Virus record (IMG/VR): IMGVR_UViG_648276662_000018
Direction: 5' to 3' (one strand)
Length of the DNA stretch: 7,135 bases
Source: a virus
Lineage: Duplodnaviria; Heunggongvirae; Uroviricota; Caudoviricetes
Below are positions 117-7,101 of this stretch, one piece after another (the stretch's first letter is position 1; every line of letters begins with the position of its first letter). A program made the position numbers and the translations under genes. The notes beneath the pieces were generated by a model that was not told the origin of the DNA, did not search any database, and saw only the letters and a program-made list of their open reading frames with translations.

Positions 117-1289
117 TCAGTCCTTATGGTGGAAATAATCACTCAGCCGGGAAAACATGCTGCCTTCCCCGACAGATTCCAGGGTAACCAGCGGCCAGTG
201 CGCCACCTGTTTATCACGGTCGTAAAGTTCAATTTCCCCTACCCGCTGATGGGCGCTAATTGGCGCGGTGAGTTCTTTACCATCAAGGGTATATTTGGCT
301 TTGATATGTGGAATTTCGGCTTTCGGTAGCACCATCCAGAACTCTTGTTCCGTTCCCAGGGCGATATTTTCTTTATCGCCATACCAGATGCGTTCCGTAC
401 CAACCTTTTTCCCACGGTGCAAAATTTGCACCGTAGTAAAGTTTTGTTGACCCCAACGCAGTAATTTTCTTGCCTCTTCCTCACGACCTTTTGCGCTGTC
501 AGCCCCCATTACCACTGCAATGAGACGACGCTGCCCATCTACAGCCGAAGCAATGAGATTAAACCCGGCACCAGAAGTATGACCCGTTTTCAGGCCGTCA
601 ACATTCATGGTTTTATCCCACAATAACCCGTTACGGTTTTGCTGGGTGATACCGTTCCAGGTGAGGCTTTTCTCACTGTACATATGATAAAACTCGGGCT
701 CGCCGTGGATGATAGCGCGAGAAAGCACAGCTAAATCATAAGCCGAGCTATGCTGGCCAGGTGCATCCAGACCATGCACTGTTTCAAAATGCGTATCCTT
801 GAGATGCAGCTTCTCGGCATAGTTGTTCATCATTTCAACAAACTGCCGTTGCCCACCGGCAATATAGTCAGCCAGTGCAACACAAGCGTCATTTCCGGAA
901 TCCACAATTAAACCACGGCTTAAATCACGTACCGATACGCGATCGCCCTCTTTCAAAAACATCAGTGAAGAACCGACAAACACCGGATTATCTTTCGCCC
1001 ACGCATCACGCCCCACGGTGACAATATCGTCTGGCGTAATGCGATGACTATCGATAGCGCGATCCACGACATAGCCCGTCATCAGCTTTGTCAGGCTGGC
1101 GGGATTGCGCTGTTGATGCTCATTACCCGCGGTGAGAATCTGACCGGTGGTGTAATCCATCAATACCCAGGACCCGGCATGAATCTCTGGAGGTTGAGGT
1201 GAAAAAGGAATGTTTTCCGCCGCAAAACCAGACGATAAATTAAAAACGAACAAAGAAGCAGCAATAATAAGACGGCGTTTCAACAGCAA
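117..1289 (-). CDS. dacD: D-alanyl-D-alanine carboxypeptidase, penicillin-binding protein 6b (DacD)
   Basis: 390-aa ORF with N-terminal signal peptide (MLLKRRLIIAASLFVFNLSSGFA) and the three PBP active-site motifs SxxK (SLTK), SxN (SGN) and KTG (KTGHT). Sequence recognised as E. coli DacD. Apparent TTG start at 1287-1289 preceded by GAGGG; stop TGA at 117-119. Confidence 0.93.
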   Translation of the reverse strand: MLLKRRLIIAASLFVFNLSSGFAAENIPFSPQPPEIHAGSWVLMDYTTGQILTAGNEHQQRNPASLTKLMTGYVVDRAIDSHRITPDDIVTVGRDAWAKDNPVFVGSSLMFLKEGDRVSVRDLSRGLIVDSGNDACVALADYIAGGQRQFVEMMNNYAEKLHLKDTHFETVHGLDAPGQHSSAYDLAVLSRAIIHGEPEFYHMYSEKSLTWNGITQQNRNGLLWDKTMNVDGLKTGHTSGAGFNLIASAVDGQRRLIAVVMGADSAKGREEEARKLLRWGQQNFTTVQILHRGKKVGTERIWYGDKENIALGTEQEFWMVLPKAEIPHIKAKYTLDGKELTAPISAHQRVGEIELYDRDKQVAHWPLVTLESVGEGSMFSRLSDYFHHKD

Positions 1290-1491
1290 ACCCTCAGGAG
1301 TTTCAAATAGCTGTTCTTTTTACGGAAATACTTATGAACTGGCTGGAATAAAGTGCAAGAAAATGTGACTACCCTCTCATTTTTATCTGACATGATCTGT
1401 TGCCACTCGCTGCCAAATTGTCGCGCTAAAGCTGATTAGCACGGTGATATTTGATACTCTGGCAGACAGCAGAAACAACGGATTTAACCTA
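1290..1491. promoter_or_regulatory. dacD-sbcB divergent intergenic region (promoters of both genes presumed here; individual elements not resolved)
   Basis: About 200 bp between the divergent dacD start (1289, minus) and the sbcB start (1492, plus), matching the K-12 gene arrangement as recalled. No clean -35/-10 pair could be assigned by eye. Confidence 0.4.
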
Positions 1492-1554
1492 ATGATGAAT
1501 GACGGTAAGCAACAATCTACCTTTTTGTTTCACGATTACGCGAAACACCCCTGA
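1492..1554 (+). pseudogene. sbcB: 5' fragment of sbcB (exonuclease I), truncated by prophage insertion
   Basis: ATGATGAATGACGGTAAGCAACAATCTACCTTTTTGTTTCACGATTAC translates to MMNDGKQQSTFLFHDY, the ExoI N-terminus up to the DEDDh catalytic motif. The frame then reads AKHP and stops at TGA 1552-1554 instead of continuing as ETFGTHPALDRP (ExoI sequence recalled from memory). Confidence 0.7.
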
Positions 1555-1835
1555 GAACCGCCATGAACAAGGGTTTCATGATTTGTGATTTTAGTTTGGT
1601 ACGCAATTTGGTACACAACACAATTTTCACTTCAGCGGGTAGTCATCAAACTCACCATAACGAGCATCGTTAATGATGTATGTAATCACCACAAACATCA
1701 CATCTGGACTAGTTCCGTTTTCATGCGCAGGTATTTGTTCACGCCTCCCTTTCTGCAAATCCTAAAGATGAGATTTTGGGATTTTGGGATATCTTTTATC
1801 CTCAGTTCTCTATCCATTATGCAAACCAGTAATGA

Positions 1836-1854
1836 ACTATCACCGTGTGATAGT
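1836..1854. promoter_or_regulatory. Operator-like palindrome ACTATCAC-CGT-GTGATAGT (8-bp perfect arms, 3-bp centre) in the non-coding prophage arm
   Basis: Arms at 1836-1843 and 1847-1854 are exact reverse complements. The left arm plus centre (TATCACCG) equals the phage lambda cI operator half-site consensus as recalled. The sequence is certain; function is unassigned. Confidence 0.4.
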
Positions 1855-1911
1855 GAGGCATCTGCCACGATAAGCGCAGAGAAATGATGCAGTGATGGGC
1901 GGACTGGCTTG

Positions 1912-1935
1912 ATGAAAAGGTGGCGTAATGCCACC
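1912..1935 (-). terminator. Candidate intrinsic terminator downstream of the tailspike gene
   Basis: On the minus strand: GGUGGC-AUUAC-GCCACC hairpin (1919-1935) followed by UUUU (1915-1918), about 40 nt after the tailspike stop. Short stem and short U-tract, so moderate confidence. Confidence 0.5.
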
Positions 1936-1974
1936 CAAATAGCGGACACTTATACCTATGCCAATATCACAGAC

Positions 1975-4662
1975 CTATTCCACAACATCATCTTCTATCA
2001 ATTCAGCCTTATTTAGTTGTTCCTTAAGCTTATTCCATGCAGAATCCTCAGGCATCTGTACTCGCACAGAAACGAATTGATTAGCAGGAATGTCGATCGG
2101 GTCACCGTTCGAAACACCAGGGATGTCGTTACGTGCAAAAACTGGCGAGTTATCGTGAGTGCGGTGAAACGTTTTCACCAACACAGATCCATCTTGGTTA
2201 ACAACATAATCCAGCCAGATGAGCGGCTGCTTGTTTCGGTCCTGCGGTATTTCAAATCCACCATCAATCCCCCCCCATGAAGCATCTGCATTCAGACCTA
2301 CGCAACCCTCAATCAGATATTCCCCCAATGCCAGCCGTGTGACGGTTACCCCATCTGATTCGCGATTTGTTTCACTACTACCGTCTGAGAAAATCTTCAC
2401 AACCGGAGAGGCTTTTTTGATGAAACCACTTGAATCGACGGTCGTGTTCAGCGACGACCATGCCTCAGCCCAGCCTGTGTTACCTGCGCGAATAGCATCG
2501 TCTGCGTAGCGGAAGAACAGTTTTGATGTTGTGGACATGAATATCTGCAACACACGGTTTTTTGCATATCCTGACTCCCATAATGCTCCGTTACCTGTTC
2601 CTTCTGGCTGCCAGTTTGTCACCCCACCTGCAGCTCCTATACTTACACCAGTAGACCAGTCTCCAGCAAATTCTGGAAGATTTAGTGAGTTAGGTGAGCG
2701 AATTGATACATCAACCAGACCAGGGGATCCGAGAATCGACATGCTGCGGGAGGACACCTTAGTAAAAGAGTTGTACCCGCCGTTTTTGGAAATCCTTCCT
2801 GTATAATTATTAGCCCTGTTAGTTCCATTAACTGTAATTTCCCAGGTATCGCCGTTGATGAAGTCGATCTGCAATAGGCAGAATGCTGGCAGCGTCATCT
2901 GTCCTGGCGCAGATGGCCCACCTTCAAACAGTGGCATATCCTGTTCAAGATATGTCACATATCTACCTGCATCTGTATTCCGCAAATAGTCACAAATAGC
3001 CTGTGCCGATGTAAATAGCGCAATACCATCAGCCGGGTTTACAGGGTGACGGCCAGCGTTAATCACCCTTCCGCGAGGGTTAAATAACTGTGATGAGGCA
3101 TTGGATAGCGGAGTCATGTCTACTGTTCCAGGTTCATTAGATGGACAGTTAGCGCGAATGATGTTTAAAGTCCTATAATTTGATCCGCCCCCATTGTCAT
3201 AGCGAATAGACTGTAGAAGATACAATTCCTCAGAGCCAGAAATATCACAAGACTGCACCCCCTCATTTTCAGTGGAGTAAACACTCTTCCCTGAATAACT
3301 ATCCCAGTATGTTTTGAAATCTGCAGGTGACAGCAGGTACTGACCTAATTCTGAACCATTAAGGCTGTACTCAATATAACCCTGCAACCCTGCGAAAGTA
3401 TTTCCAGATCCCGCCGTGGTAGATGCACCAATACCAGCAAATATCCGTTGAGAACCAAGAGCGACACCCTGCCGTTTTGGTTTACCGGCTCCGCGACCTC
3501 CAACATTTGCATCAACCGTAATAGTCCCCATTGGACTGTAAGATCCTTCTATAAGGCTGTTAATATCCAGTGTGTTAAAGATATTGGATACACCTGTCTC
3601 AACATCAAAAATTTTCGGCCAACCCATATCCGCATTTTCGTATATCAGGGTATTACCAAAGCCACTAAACTGATATCGCACTCCAAGGCGTGTTGATTCA
3701 GTGAAGTTTGTAATCTGCGTTTTATCAACCAGTGTACGCGGATCTTCGATAGGGTAAATTCTGATAGTGCGAGATGGGCTGTACGGCAGCAGGATGTAAC
3801 GCTGTCCTGCCACTCGGTAAACGTGGATGCCTTCTGGTGCACCAACGTTATTCGGAAAATGAAGACGTGTTACCAATGCTCCTGTTACCCAGTCATGCAC
3901 CGTAACCCATACCGATGCGGGGTCTAGCGTCTGCCAGCCGATGTATACCATTCCATCATTGCTGTCTATGTAAATCCCCTGAAATCCCATGGTCGTGTAA
4001 CCATACTGATCTTTAAGATCTGCGGTAATCTCATCGTCTATGATGCTGAATTCTAATTTCCAGTTCAGCGGCCTACGCGTACCACTGACATGCCTGGAAA
4101 TATGAGACAGGTAGCTTTTAACCCCGCCTGCGATAATGTATCTATGTTTGATCTCAGTAACAATTCCAGTTGCAACTGGAGTGCATTTATAGACGCCGCC
4201 GTTTATTCTAATAAAATTGGTTCCTGTTAGATTATCCCCAATGGCAACGTCTTTTCTACTATTCTTAAACGTCCCATTACCTAAGTCAGTAACAAGCAAT
4301 GCCCCTTCTACATATTTCAATGACTGATCAGGGTCATACTTCAGCACATTAGGAAAATAGAACTGCTGTGTACCATACGCATCATAAACAGCCATAGAAT
4401 GGCCTTGCACGGTAACGAATTTGGCAATCTGTCCGTTATATACTGGATACCCTGCGGCATTGATGACGATTGGCTGTGCAACAGGAACGTGAGAGCCGTC
4501 TTCGTTTTCCACATAAACCTGAATCTGGTTTTCTGGATTTACAGGATCAGTGTCAATTTTACCGATATAAATTTTGCCATTGGCTACGGCTTTAAAAGAA
4601 CGCGCCATAGTGAAGAGTTGCGAAGGCATCGATACGATCACATTGGCTGTAATGTCTGTCAT
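1975..4662 (-). CDS. Phage tailspike protein: P22 gp9-type N-terminal head-binding domain fused to a divergent receptor-binding/enzymatic body
   Basis: 895-aa ORF. The first ~115 aa ([11 protein letters not shown]...[26 protein letters not shown]...ENEDGSHV...[13 protein letters not shown]...NVLKYDPDQ) closely match the P22 tailspike head-binding domain as recalled. ATG at 4660-4662 with GGAG 9 nt upstream; stop TAG at 1975-1977. Confidence 0.9.
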
Positions 4663-4747: not shown

Positions 4748-4798
4748 GCTATCCATCAAGGCCATCGCCGCTTAGTTGCTGCGGTGAATTTTGGGCAT

Positions 4799-4821
4799 AA
4801 AAAAACCCAGCCGAAGCTGGG
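4799..4821 (-). terminator. Intrinsic terminator between ant and the tailspike gene
   Basis: On the minus strand: GC-rich 6-bp stem CCCAGC/GCUGGG with a UUCG tetraloop, immediately followed by U7 (4799-4805), about 45 nt after the ant stop. The plus-strand version has no U-tract. Confidence 0.8.
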
Positions 4822-4862
4822 TCGTTGCGTTGGTTATTGACCTACACTTTTCGTGCAGGTAG

Positions 4863-5786
4863 TTAAAGTTTAATTGAGTGGCACGCTCTATCACGTATCG
4901 CTGCGAATGAAGCTATCTCTTTAAGTGCCCAGCTTTGCTCAGCAATTAAATGGCGAAGTGCTTTTAGCTCGGCTCTTACTGCTGAAACGTCATACCCCGC
5001 TTTTGTCAGAATATCGATTAGTTTATACGCCGGACTGCATTCAACGAGTGCGCTGCGGTCAAGAGCAACAGTATCACCGCATTGCTGCCTGATAATGGCG
5101 TAAGGTGCATTTTCAGAAAACCATGAAATCGGGAAGTTAATATCCAGTTTTGGCGCTGGTAACTCTTCTTGCTTGCCAATGAACTCACCTTCAAGCGGAA
5201 CTCGAGCTGCAAGTGACAGTGCTTCGGTAAACTGCTCCTCACTGATTTCTTTATATGAACATCCAAAATGGGATTTCAGTGACGACCACATGGTGATCAT
5301 CGCCTTAGCCTGTTTTTCTTTTGGCAGAGACTGACCGCGACTCATGACGAGTTGTTTAATGGCTTCCTGCTGTTCAGTGGTAATTTTACCCGGCAACGCC
5401 TTTTTAGCTTTGCGTGGGTTAACTACATGACCTTTAGTCCAGTACTCGTAGAGCACATCGTCACACTCTTCCTGATACTGGATTACCTTGTCGCGGATTT
5501 CAGGGCGGACTTTGTTTGGCTGAATGCTTGAAAGCCAAGCCGCAAACTTACGAAAGGCAAGGCATATCATTAACTGTTTACCGCCAGCAGAAGGTATTTC
5601 GATTTCCGAAATACCTTTGACAAATCTCTGTTTTAATTTAACAAATTGAGCAGCCCAAACCATACCCATGCCTTCTACAACGGGTTTCATAGGAACGTAA
5701 GGTTCATTGTTAATGCTGACCAAAAAGAGATTTGTTCCGTGGAATGGAACGTTGATTGTATGTTCTGCAATTGCTACACTCGTCAT
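4863..5786 (-). CDS. ant: Phage antirepressor (Ant-like)
   Basis: 307-aa ORF immediately downstream of arc in the same orientation and upstream of the tailspike, matching P22 immI synteny and the size of P22 Ant (~300 aa). AGGAA about 9 nt upstream of ATG 5784-5786. Assignment rests on synteny and size, not on recalled sequence. Confidence 0.75.
   Translation of the reverse strand: MTSVAIAEHTINVPFHGTNLFLVSINNEPYVPMKPVVEGMGMVWAAQFVKLKQRFVKGISEIEIPSAGGKQLMICLAFRKFAAWLSSIQPNKVRPEIRDKVIQYQEECDDVLYEYWTKGHVVNPRKAKKALPGKITTEQQEAIKQLVMSRGQSLPKEKQAKAMITMWSSLKSHFGCSYKEISEEQFTEALSLAARVPLEGEFIGKQEELPAPKLDINFPISWFSENAPYAIIRQQCGDTVALDRSALVECSPAYKLIDILTKAGYDVSAVRAELKALRHLIAEQSWALKEIASFAAIRDRACHSIKL
5752..5780 (+). 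promoter_or_regulatory. Candidate promoter for a sar-like antisense RNA (within the first codons of ant, opposite strand)
   Basis: Plus strand: TTGATT (5752-5757), 17-bp spacer, TACACT (5775-5780). Predicted start ~5787, directly opposite the ant start codon and ribosome-binding site. Confidence 0.35.
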
Positions 5787-5858
5787 GTCGTTAATTCCTA
5801 TGCGTGGTTTTACGATACCGAAGCCCTGACTGTTCCCGCAGTTGGGGCTTCAACTTTC
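5787..5858 (+). ncRNA. Candidate sar-like small antisense RNA covering the ant ribosome-binding site
   Basis: Predicted ~70-nt plus-strand transcript ending at a 13-bp hairpin (5820-5832 paired with 5839-5851, 6-nt loop) followed by AACUUUCU. The stem contains two G-U wobble pairs that would be C-A mismatches on the minus-strand RNA, so the structure is favoured on the plus strand. P22 is known to make a ~68-nt antisense RNA (sar) at this position. Confidence 0.4.
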
Positions 5859-6053
5859 TGATCTATCAGTTATATCTTTCCCTTCATATACTTCACCTAT
5901 ATTGCTAATGCTGGCAGAACATCCAAGATGCTTGTATCTTATGATGTCCAACACGCAGTCACTACACAGCATCCGACCTGTTTCTTTAGAGTAAATGTAT
6001 GTTTGATCAGCGTCTGATTCGCTAATGCCGCAGAAACAACATTCTTTACTCAT
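5850..6053 (-). CDS. Small Cys-rich protein (putative zinc-ribbon), unknown function, inserted between arc and ant
   Basis: 67-aa ORF with CCxC near the N-terminus and CxxC about 21 residues later. Its ATG overlaps the arc stop as ATGA (6050-6053), indicating translational coupling; GAGGGGG lies ~9 nt upstream. P22 has no gene between arc and ant (as recalled). Confidence 0.6.
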   Translation of the reverse strand: MSKECCFCGISESDADQTYIYSKETGRMLCSDCVLDIIRYKHLGCSASISNIGEVYEGKDITDRSES

Positions 6054-6202
6054 ACCATTACCCCCTCTCTCTTCAAGCTGTCTATCAGGCGCTTGATAAC
6101 CTCTGAGTTAAACGACCTGCACTCTTCCTTTGCCCTGCTACCTATAGCATCCTTTAACGACTGCGGCATCCTTACCAAAATCTTACTTATTTCTTTCTCC
6201 AT
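6050..6202 (-). CDS. arc: Arc-like ribbon-helix-helix transcriptional repressor
   Basis: 50-aa product MEKEISKILVRMPQSLKDAIGSRAKEECRSFNSEVIKRLIDSLKREGVMV aligns with P22 Arc (R-P, GRSxNSE, KKEG pattern). Start set at ATG 6200-6202 with GGAGGG 6 nt upstream; the longer ORF beginning at 6238 has no ribosome-binding site. Confidence 0.85.
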   Translation of the reverse strand: MEKEISKILVRMPQSLKDAIGSRAKEECRSFNSEVIKRLIDSLKREGVMV

Positions 6203-6238
6203 GTTACCCTCCACACAAACAACTCTTTTCGAATACAA

Positions 6239-6316: not shown

Positions 6317-6565
6317 ATGGCAAAGGGTGTGTCAATTTCTCCAACTACGGTAAGAATCCCTGAATCTTTACGCGAGGCTCTTGCTGTCAGAGCATCAAAA
6401 AATGGTCGCTCTGTTAACTCCGAGATCGTCATGATTTTGCAAGCCGCGATTGATGAAGATAGGTCGCCAAAGTCAGTTGAGTCATTTGCTCAGCAAGAAG
6501 CTGACAAATTCAAAGAGGCGCTGCTTGAGACGCTAAAGACCATGTATGGTAAGGATGAAAAATAA
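6317..6565 (+). CDS. mnt: Mnt-like ribbon-helix-helix repressor (maintenance of lysogeny)
   Basis: 82-aa product MAKGVSISPTTVRIPESLREALAVRASKNGRSVNSEIVMILQAAIDED... aligns with P22 Mnt (RxP, REAL, NGRSxNSE, C-terminal TLKxxYxK). Start ATG 6317-6319 with AAGGTG 4 nt upstream; the upstream in-frame extension from 6275 has no ribosome-binding site. Confidence 0.85.
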   Translation: MAKGVSISPTTVRIPESLREALAVRASKNGRSVNSEIVMILQAAIDEDRSPKSVESFAQQEADKFKEALLETLKTMYGKDEK

Positions 6566-7101
6566 TGCTGCACACAATTCATTTCTTATGCCCCGTTAAC
6601 ACTGCCACTGTTGGGCAACTTCAGAACCACTGTCTCACCGCATTATCTCAAGGCGCAACTGAATTAAATATCCATATATCAAGTCAGGGAGGGGAAACTG
6701 CCGCTGGCTTTACTGCGTATAACTTTCTTAAGTCACTCCCTGTTACCGTTAGAACTCACAACATAAGCAATGTTGAATCCATAGCTAATATCGTTTTCCT
6801 GGCTGGCTCAGAACGTTTCGCAAACCCATTATCAAGATTCCTGTTACATCCTCTATTATGGTGCTTTGCCTCCCCAGCCGCCGACCATGCCAGATTGAGA
6901 GAGTACGGGAAATGCCTCGATAACGATCTTGATCGCTTCGTTGAGACGTTCAATATCGACATCGGAACCCATATTAGGTGGGCATCCCTGATAGCAGACT
7001 CGACCATTTTGGATGCTAACAAGGCTCTTGAGCATGGCATAATTAATTCCATAAAAACTGCAAGGCTGGCATCCAATCAGGCAAACTGGTGGGTTGTTTG
7101 A
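6565..7101 (+). CDS. ClpP-family (peptidase S14-like) serine peptidase homolog, N-terminally truncated relative to ClpP; moron gene co-transcribed with mnt
   Basis: 178-aa ORF whose ATG overlaps the mnt stop (TAATG at 6563-6567), with AAGGAT ~9 nt upstream. By-eye alignment to E. coli ClpP: ISSQGGETAAG vs INSPGGVITAG; THNISNVESIANIVFLAG vs STICMGQAASMGAFLLTAG with the catalytic Ser aligned without gaps; RFANPLSRFLLHP vs RFCLPNSRVMIHQP with the catalytic His conserved; ALEHGIINSI vs AVEYGLVDSI. Confidence 0.8.
   Translation: MLHTIHFLCPVNTATVGQLQNHCLTALSQGATELNIHISSQGGETAAGFTAYNFLKSLPVTVRTHNISNVESIANIVFLAGSERFANPLSRFLLHPLLWCFASPAADHARLREYGKCLDNDLDRFVETFNIDIGTHIRWASLIADSTILDANKALEHGIINSIKTARLASNQANWWVV

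Follow-up and report, generated by a model that had tools for sequence, protein, structure and literature searches.

The int-distal junction of a P22-like prophage at the 2851-type attachment site in sbcB, where the exonuclease I gene is most likely rebuilt

Integrases that target the 3' ends of genes, such as those of P4 and P22 at tRNA genes and of e14 and phage 21 at icd, bring a duplicate of the displaced end, and the surrogate copy carried by the element makes integration phenotypically near-neutral. Because it is the 3' end that is replaced at tRNA genes and icd, the host promoter and the translation start are kept. A gene-splitting prophage such as that in Listeria comK ("active lysogeny") leaves its host gene genuinely broken, and excision alone brings it back. 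The 2851 site in sbcB, the gene of exonuclease I (ExoI), is said to have been originally described by Strauch et al. in 2008.

The 13-bp attP 5'-CGTAATCGTGAAA-3' was published for the Stx2c phage 2851 and the Shigella phage Sf101 (PMC4159516), and the same 13 bp are labelled "attP (type 2851)" in the GenBank records of mEp234 and HK544. Occupancy of sbcB is a standard marker that types E. coli O157:H7 lineages and locates Stx2c, Stx1a, and Stx2a prophages; the "phage-sbcB right junction" is used in O157 insertion-site typing, with the primer sbcB-F (PMC3519850). Both the site and the phenomenon are already known and common, being found in roughly 10% of complete E. coli genomes. The sbcB-site literature, these two papers among it (PMC4159516; PMC3519850), describes the gene as "occupied" or "disrupted," and an explicit statement of sbcB restoration was not found among the papers searched. 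The replacement of the sbcB 5' end thus seems to be under-stated in the literature searched. A documented parallel is provided by the dusA-specific integrases (DAIs) of prophages and genomic islands, where the target characteristically loses its 5' end to element-borne sequence that brings putative promoter elements as well as a substitute for an N-terminal beta-strand (Farrugia et al., 2015; PMC4482086).

The DNA analyzed here (the window) comprises exactly the last 7,135 bases of the 28.5-kb contig GG772643.1, from the draft assembly GCA_000164355.1. Its host part and the junction with phage DNA comprise the following features:

117-1289, minus strand: dacD, encoding D-Ala-D-Ala carboxypeptidase PBP6b (Pfam Peptidase_S11, E=9e-105, and PBP5_C); flanks sbcB
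1290-1491, plus strand: native dacD-sbcB intergenic region of 202 bp, the host sbcB upstream/promoter region (K-12 alignment)
1492-1539, plus strand: native sbcB codons 1-16, MMNDGKQQSTFLFHDY, identical to K-12 sbcB
1492-1554, plus strand: complete 20-codon stub ORF MMNDGKQQSTFLFHDYAKHP, ending in a stop codon (direct sequence reading)
1528-1540, no strand: 13-bp common core TTTCACGATTACG, the crossover place, encoding F13-H14-D15-Y16 and the first base of E17
1541-1626, no strand: int-distal arm of the phage attP, with high conservation among seven phages that have the same module
1595-1618, plus strand: tandem direct repeats TTTGGTACGCAA / TTTGGTACACAA (repeat search), candidate arm-type Int-binding sites

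The divergent order of dacD and sbcB is that of K-12 MG1655. Aligned four ways, the window agrees with K-12 MG1655 as far as the final core base, apart from one mismatch in the upstream leader, and continues as phage attP sequence. Since all 48 sbcB coding bases of the stub are identical to K-12 (48/48) and dacD adjoins as in K-12, the match to sbcB is not due to chance. The stub ORF consists of 16 host codons followed by four phage-derived codons (AKHP) and a TGA at 1552-1554; it keeps D15, and Glu at position 17 is changed to Ala. D15 and E17 of the DEDDh motif are the catalytic residues of ExoI. The host sbcB upstream/promoter region is now split off from the body of the gene. This native region lacks a strong sigma-70 consensus, as judged from a strict scan of window positions 1280-2000 and a permissive hexamer scan. 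The primer sbcB-F (PMC3519850) matches window positions 1464-1487 by eye.

A junction query (window 1440-1640, 201 bases) was searched against complete E. coli genomes, and the stub-type junction was found in 571 of 5,426 of them (about 10.5%). In more than 4,800 non-lysogenic complete genomes the match is confined to query positions 1-101, and homology therefore ends exactly at window position 1540. The core TTTCACGATTACG is the reverse complement of the published CGTAATCGTGAAA and is common to attB of K-12, attP of Sf101, the window junction and the int-side junction of E. coli HCM-26C-1 (four-way alignment). A tRNA or known small RNA as the target of this att site was rejected: the tRNA search found no tRNA within the 7,135-nt window, and the single Rfam hit, sar, is far from the junction.

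The window can be assigned to the 2851-type sbcB integration module, which is already known, and it shows every defining feature of the module that falls within its limits. With phages 2851, Sf101, HK544, mEp234, and HK140 it shares the identical core, the position in the 5' part of sbcB, the neighboring dacD, and the distal arm sequence with two TTTGGTAC repeats. It differs from the named phages of this type in its P22-like body, another tailspike and the absence of stx or oacB cargo. With it, the elements that use this int/att module now include a P22-like prophage of non-Stx type. The attP module is about 98% identical (mean column identity) among Sf101, mEp234, HK140, HK544, EC.P3, E212, and APC_JM3.2. 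In a seven-phage alignment of which the window was not a row, its arm from 1541 to about 1700 reads by eye like the HK544 / EC.P3 variants. Carriers of the module comprise the P22-like Sf101, E212, EC.P3, and APC_JM3.2, the lambda-like siphoviruses HK544, HK140, and mEp234, and many Stx1a, Stx2a, and Stx2c phages; the int/att module passes horizontally between lambdoid phages of the podovirus and siphovirus types.

Both arm repeats at 1595-1618 fit TTTGGTAC(G/A)C. The motif TGGTACRC occurs in four copies in the window (0.33 expected), and three further copies in the same orientation are found in the int-proximal arm of locus L001. The Int of the module, of about 392 aa, comprises Arm-DNA-bind_3 and Phage_integrase domains, and the TGGTAC repeats are putative arm-type sites that would be bound by its N-terminal arm-binding domain. 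The other two TGGTACRC copies of the window (4077-4084 and 4368-4375, minus strand) lie inside the tailspike gene and are probably coincidental, yet unexplained.

To the right of the arm the window contains the following prophage features:

1630-1880, minus strand: UmuD-like (S24 peptidase / HumD) pseudogene remnant, with the N-terminus missing, one frameshift and one in-frame stop
1975-4662, minus strand: tailspike, 895 aa (PF09008 Head_binding, E=1.7e-66, residues 1-113; Phage_tail_C_2, E=2e-59)
4863-5786, minus strand: antirepressor Ant of the immI region (Pfam P22_AR_N, E=7e-40)
5788-5855, plus strand: sar, the antisense RNA of P22 immI (Rfam RF00262; score 84.6 bits, gathering threshold 43, E=3e-17)
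6050-6202, minus strand: Arc repressor, 50 aa from ATG (Pfam Arc, E=8.5e-12)
6317-6565, plus strand: Mnt-like ribbon-helix-helix repressor, 82 aa (Pfam Arc, E=1e-10)
6565-7101, plus strand: 178-aa homologue of ClpP-like serine protease, beside immI in the variable region (Pfam CLP_protease, E=2e-11)

The assignment of the prophage as P22-like (Lederbergvirus-type) is based on the gp9 head-binding tailspike and the ant/sar/arc/mnt immI region in the window, together with genes for gp7 (P22_gp7), gp20 (Inj_translocase), gp16 (Phage_P22_gp16), and gp10 (Phage_stabilise) found on the parent contig (L020) beyond the window. The phage part of the window is covered at 13-36% by any deposited phage (megablast).

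The first-pass annotation of this DNA, made from the sequence alone, had described a prophage inside the 5' end of sbcB that leaves a 16-codon ExoI stub, diverges from the gene at the D15/E17 motif and is followed by a stop four codons on. This description agrees with the host DNA up to the core, the K-12 identity of codons 1-16 at 1492-1539, the retention of D15 with the loss of E17, and the AKHP codons and TGA that follow Y16. The recombination core, predicted around 1525-1555, was located at 1528-1540, and the comparison with the uninterrupted sbcB of K-12 gave identity through the core and loss of contiguity after 1540. The view that all DNA to the right is phage-like is borne out by the UmuD-like pseudogene, tailspike, antirepressor, sar, Arc, and Mnt-like repressor. 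One implication of the same annotation fared differently: the stub at the present junction is real, but sbcB, which its title implied to be simply broken, is most likely rebuilt.

The UmuD-like remnant is 54-59% identical to HK140_028, in two frames and with an internal stop (tblastn), and the equivalent stretch in HCM-26C-1 is annotated by PGAP as a frameshifted HumD-family pseudogene. In HK140 and APC_JM3.2 the UmuD-like gene adjoins attP, and other sbcB-site lysogens annotate an intact "S24 family peptidase."

In the tailspike only residues 1-113 and 739-872 match families, and the receptor-binding center of about 625 aa has no Pfam match. An identical 895-aa tailspike is encoded by a P22-like prophage at another chromosomal site (L018, logan:ERR11472738_444, 10001-13609), which indicates that the tailspike and the int/att module assort independently. 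There the tailspike is followed by a PBP-family gene (PF01161), apparent biotin-synthesis genes and uvrB, an arrangement that resembles the lambda att neighborhood. A GC-rich hairpin followed by a T-run, GGTGGC-ATTAC-GCCACC TTTTCATC, is located just downstream of the tailspike gene (1911-1935, minus strand), and another, CCCAGC-TTCG-GCTGGG TTTTTTT, downstream of ant (4797-4826, minus strand), both identified by eye. They are likely intrinsic terminators, although the first was not reported by a consensus terminator scan of window positions 1280-2000.

The mechanical ORF list carries Arc up to a TTG at 6238; the gene call on the parent contig is 50 aa. A 67-aa ORF (5850-6053, minus strand) is situated between arc and ant; its product has two CxxC pairs (CCFC...CSDC) and matches no Pfam family. 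This ORF covers the 3' end of sar, which is on the opposite strand, and several related contigs have it as a gene call. The ClpP-like gene directly follows the mnt-like gene, where other P22-like prophages have sieA or accessory genes (cf. L022). Its homologue is called "head maturation protease" in one phage record; its position suggests an accessory or exclusion function.

What becomes of sbcB can be read at the other end of such prophages. On the int side of the core, attP has roughly 180 bp of phage DNA and then an ATG with a 15-codon mimic of the sbcB start, MT[D/G]TDKQPTFLFHDY, that runs into the core. This mimic ending in the core is present in the free phages Sf101, mEp234, HK140, HK544, EC.P3, E212, and APC_JM3.2. 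In the unintegrated attP of Sf101 it forms the mini-ORF MTGTDKQPTFLFHDYAHPA, the equivalent of the stub, which stops a few codons past the core. As attP brings its own ATG and mimic, a 474-aa sbcB is re-formed at the int-side junction. In lysogens the mimic is fused in frame to host codon 17 and onward, and the hybrid ExoI of 474 aa differs from the native protein at residues 2-8 only. The DEDDh residues D and E flank the hybrid junction and are both kept: the core contains the whole Asp codon, and its final base joins host DNA to give the Glu codon. The conserved strand and catalytic motif TFLFHDYE are preserved exactly.

In HCM-26C-1, a P22-like prophage of ~39 kb lies between a window-like dacD-side junction and int, and directly past int PGAP annotates a 474-aa "exodeoxyribonuclease I" in which the first 15 codons are the mimic and the remainder is host sbcB. 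The same 474-aa arrangement was found in O157:H7 EC4115 (Stx2c prophage), O145:H28 RM13514, DAM, and 21AH004, where the hybrid gene is neither flagged as a pseudogene nor broken by internal stops and, past the junction, shares 98.5-99.1% identity with K-12. The 474-aa frame is therefore intact and open in all five lysogens inspected (5/5), and every related complete genome inspected carries the cognate int and the mimic-bearing arm at the far prophage end. The int-side junction, searched with a query of phage arm and mimic, occurs in 579-581 of the 5,426 complete E. coli genomes. In an evenly spread sample of chromosomal hits, sbcB was annotated as exodeoxyribonuclease I over the phage-borne segment in 59 of 59 cases.

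The replaced residues 2-8 look dispensable in structural comparison. In an alignment with solved ExoI structures, M1 of the hybrid aligns with M2 of K-12; the distant ExoI structure 4rg8 aligns from residue 11 only, and the Pfam RNase_T domain begins at residue 12. That the mimic ORF is conserved is not in itself evidence of selection for its reading frame, since the attP modules are ~98% identical throughout. A strict scan of the phage-borne 180 bp upstream of the mimic found no sigma-70 promoter, and a permissive hexamer scan found weak candidates only, with 18-19 nt spacers; as the native upstream region scores no better, these scans say little either way.

Taken together, window positions 1492-1626 very probably represent the int-distal junction of a P22-like prophage integrated at the 2851-type site, in sbcB codons 13-17, with the host gene most likely rebuilt. 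The prophage would have entered by tyrosine-integrase site-specific recombination between attP and attB within these codons. The same fusion of mimic and sbcB would be present at its far end; the reconstitution of sbcB by a phage-borne 5' mimic, which the first-pass annotation had left open, is observed in related lysogens and is extrapolated to the strain of the window, the int-side junction of which is on another contig of GCA_000164355.1. The hybrid gene would be transcribed from a promoter in the phage-borne divergent intergenic region between int and sbcB, yielding active ExoI. The native sbcB promoter would be left with the 20-codon stub only and could possibly drive antisense transcription into the prophage end. 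Judged from these sequence comparisons, the lysogen most likely retains a functional sbcB, with an altered N-terminus and with upstream DNA brought by the phage.

Such an arrangement resembles the dusA elements in that the 5' end of a housekeeping gene is targeted, a 5' stub is left at the other junction, and an in-frame surrogate 5' end re-forms a full-length target ORF at the int side, as seen in related lysogens. The two systems differ in their target and in the extent of the exchange: the dusA swap includes a structural beta-strand, and the sbcB swap concerns residues 2-8 only. With P4, P22, e14, and phage 21 the module shares a site in a conserved gene and an element-borne surrogate of the displaced part. 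As it is the 5' end of sbcB that is replaced, transcription and translation initiation pass to phage-borne DNA. Like the comK prophage, the element sits inside a host coding sequence; in contrast to it, a full-length open sbcB is re-formed while the prophage stays integrated.

It follows for the use of this marker that "occupied" or "disrupted" sbcB should not be taken as an ExoI-null genotype, as the full-length gene is rebuilt in the inspected complete genomes, with changes confined to residues 2-8 and the upstream control region. This is relevant for inferring recombination and repair phenotypes or recombineering efficiency from prophage maps.

A cell truly deprived of ExoI, because the far junction was lost or rearranged or because the hybrid is unexpressed, appears very unlikely. 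The window itself contains only the stub, its contig ends before the far junction, and the upstream DNA brought by the phage shows no strong promoter; moreover, the region upstream of sbcB has undergone IS-mediated scrambling in Shigella flexneri genomes (PMC4159516), and the O157 literature uses "disruption" for the site. However, the two junctions occur in near-equal numbers in complete genomes (571 vs. 579-581), sbcB was annotated over the mimic in all 59 sampled lysogens and the 474-aa frame was intact in all five inspected, the promoter consensus of the native upstream region is equally weak, and Buttiauxella keeps an intact hybrid gene beside a decayed prophage (see below). A fragmented draft in which the contig ends 116 nt past dacD could have raised the suspicion of an assembly chimera, with dacD and sbcB wrongly joined to unrelated phage DNA, but this is effectively ruled out by the identical junction, with the same break base, in 571 complete E. 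coli genomes, by its recurrence in independent assemblies from ENA, Logan, and NCBI, and by the coincidence of the break with the published 13-bp att core (PMC4159516).

The element could be a defective relic and not an inducible phage, its junction being a fossil beyond excision, given that the UmuD-like gene at the junction is a pseudogene, the int end is outside view, and relics of the module exist, as in Buttiauxella. We consider this unlikely, since the window has undamaged copies of the tailspike gene, ant, sar, arc, and mnt, the core and arm repeats are unmutated compared with functional phages, and the parent contig consists of 28.5 kb of P22-like DNA, in which the part read has intact late genes. 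A relic would in any case be compatible with the above account of the origin of the junction.

The single-stranded 3' ends that ExoI degrades serve the phage's own Erf or Red-type annealing recombination as substrates. The exchange of promoter and first codons could place ExoI under phage control, sbcB being chosen in order to tune an interfering nuclease and not as a neutral landing pad, although we regard this as highly improbable. The leftward early operon has the hybrid gene immediately downstream in the sense orientation, its transcript passing xis and then int in antisense, and read-through after induction could increase ExoI. Int occupying the three arm sites of the 180-bp divergent region could instead have the opposite effect.

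A scan for KQPTFLFHDYETFG, covering one genome per species, revealed native genes in Mixta, Winslowiella, and Yersinia and one informative case, Buttiauxella sp. B2 (L011, NZ_VEXQ01000015.1, 1238-3455), where a decayed relative of the int/att module is present in another genus. Here sbcB is intact at 475 aa and lies behind a diverged phage arm with three TGGTAC repeats; its first five codons differ (TTG-NNSE), its diverged, phage-derived 5' end reads NNSEKQPTFLFHDY, and the core is TTTCATGATTACG. The int gene is frameshifted, with residues 1-198 in two frames, and an IS transposase adjoins. As sbcB is open beside a truncated int, the hybrid gene has stayed intact next to a decayed prophage, which may be taken as an independent hint that hybrid sbcB works.

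The origin of the mimic may lie outside Escherichia. The mimic MTDTDKQPTFLFHDY (L001 8219-8264) and the native start of Mixta theicola sbcB, MTDKQKQPTFLFHDY (L010 1260-1300), have the same length and are identical at 13 of 15 positions by eye; the native E. coli start MMNDGKQQSTFLFHDY is less like the mimic than the Mixta start. At the DNA level, the mimic reads CCTACCTTCCTCTTTCA[C/T]GATTACG and the E. coli sequence TCTACCTTTTTGTTTCACGATTACG. These similarities hint that the mimic was captured from a non-Escherichia sbcB, the likeness to Mixta being weak evidence because the stretch is so short.

The record NZ_CP063485.1 of E. coli EM03-18-08 (39,096 bp) begins exactly one base past the att core, and its other end falls inside the mimic/core segment. 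Apparently a complete phage genome of the 2851 att type was deposited here as a replicon of its own, be it a circle that had excised or a prophage that was cut out at att.
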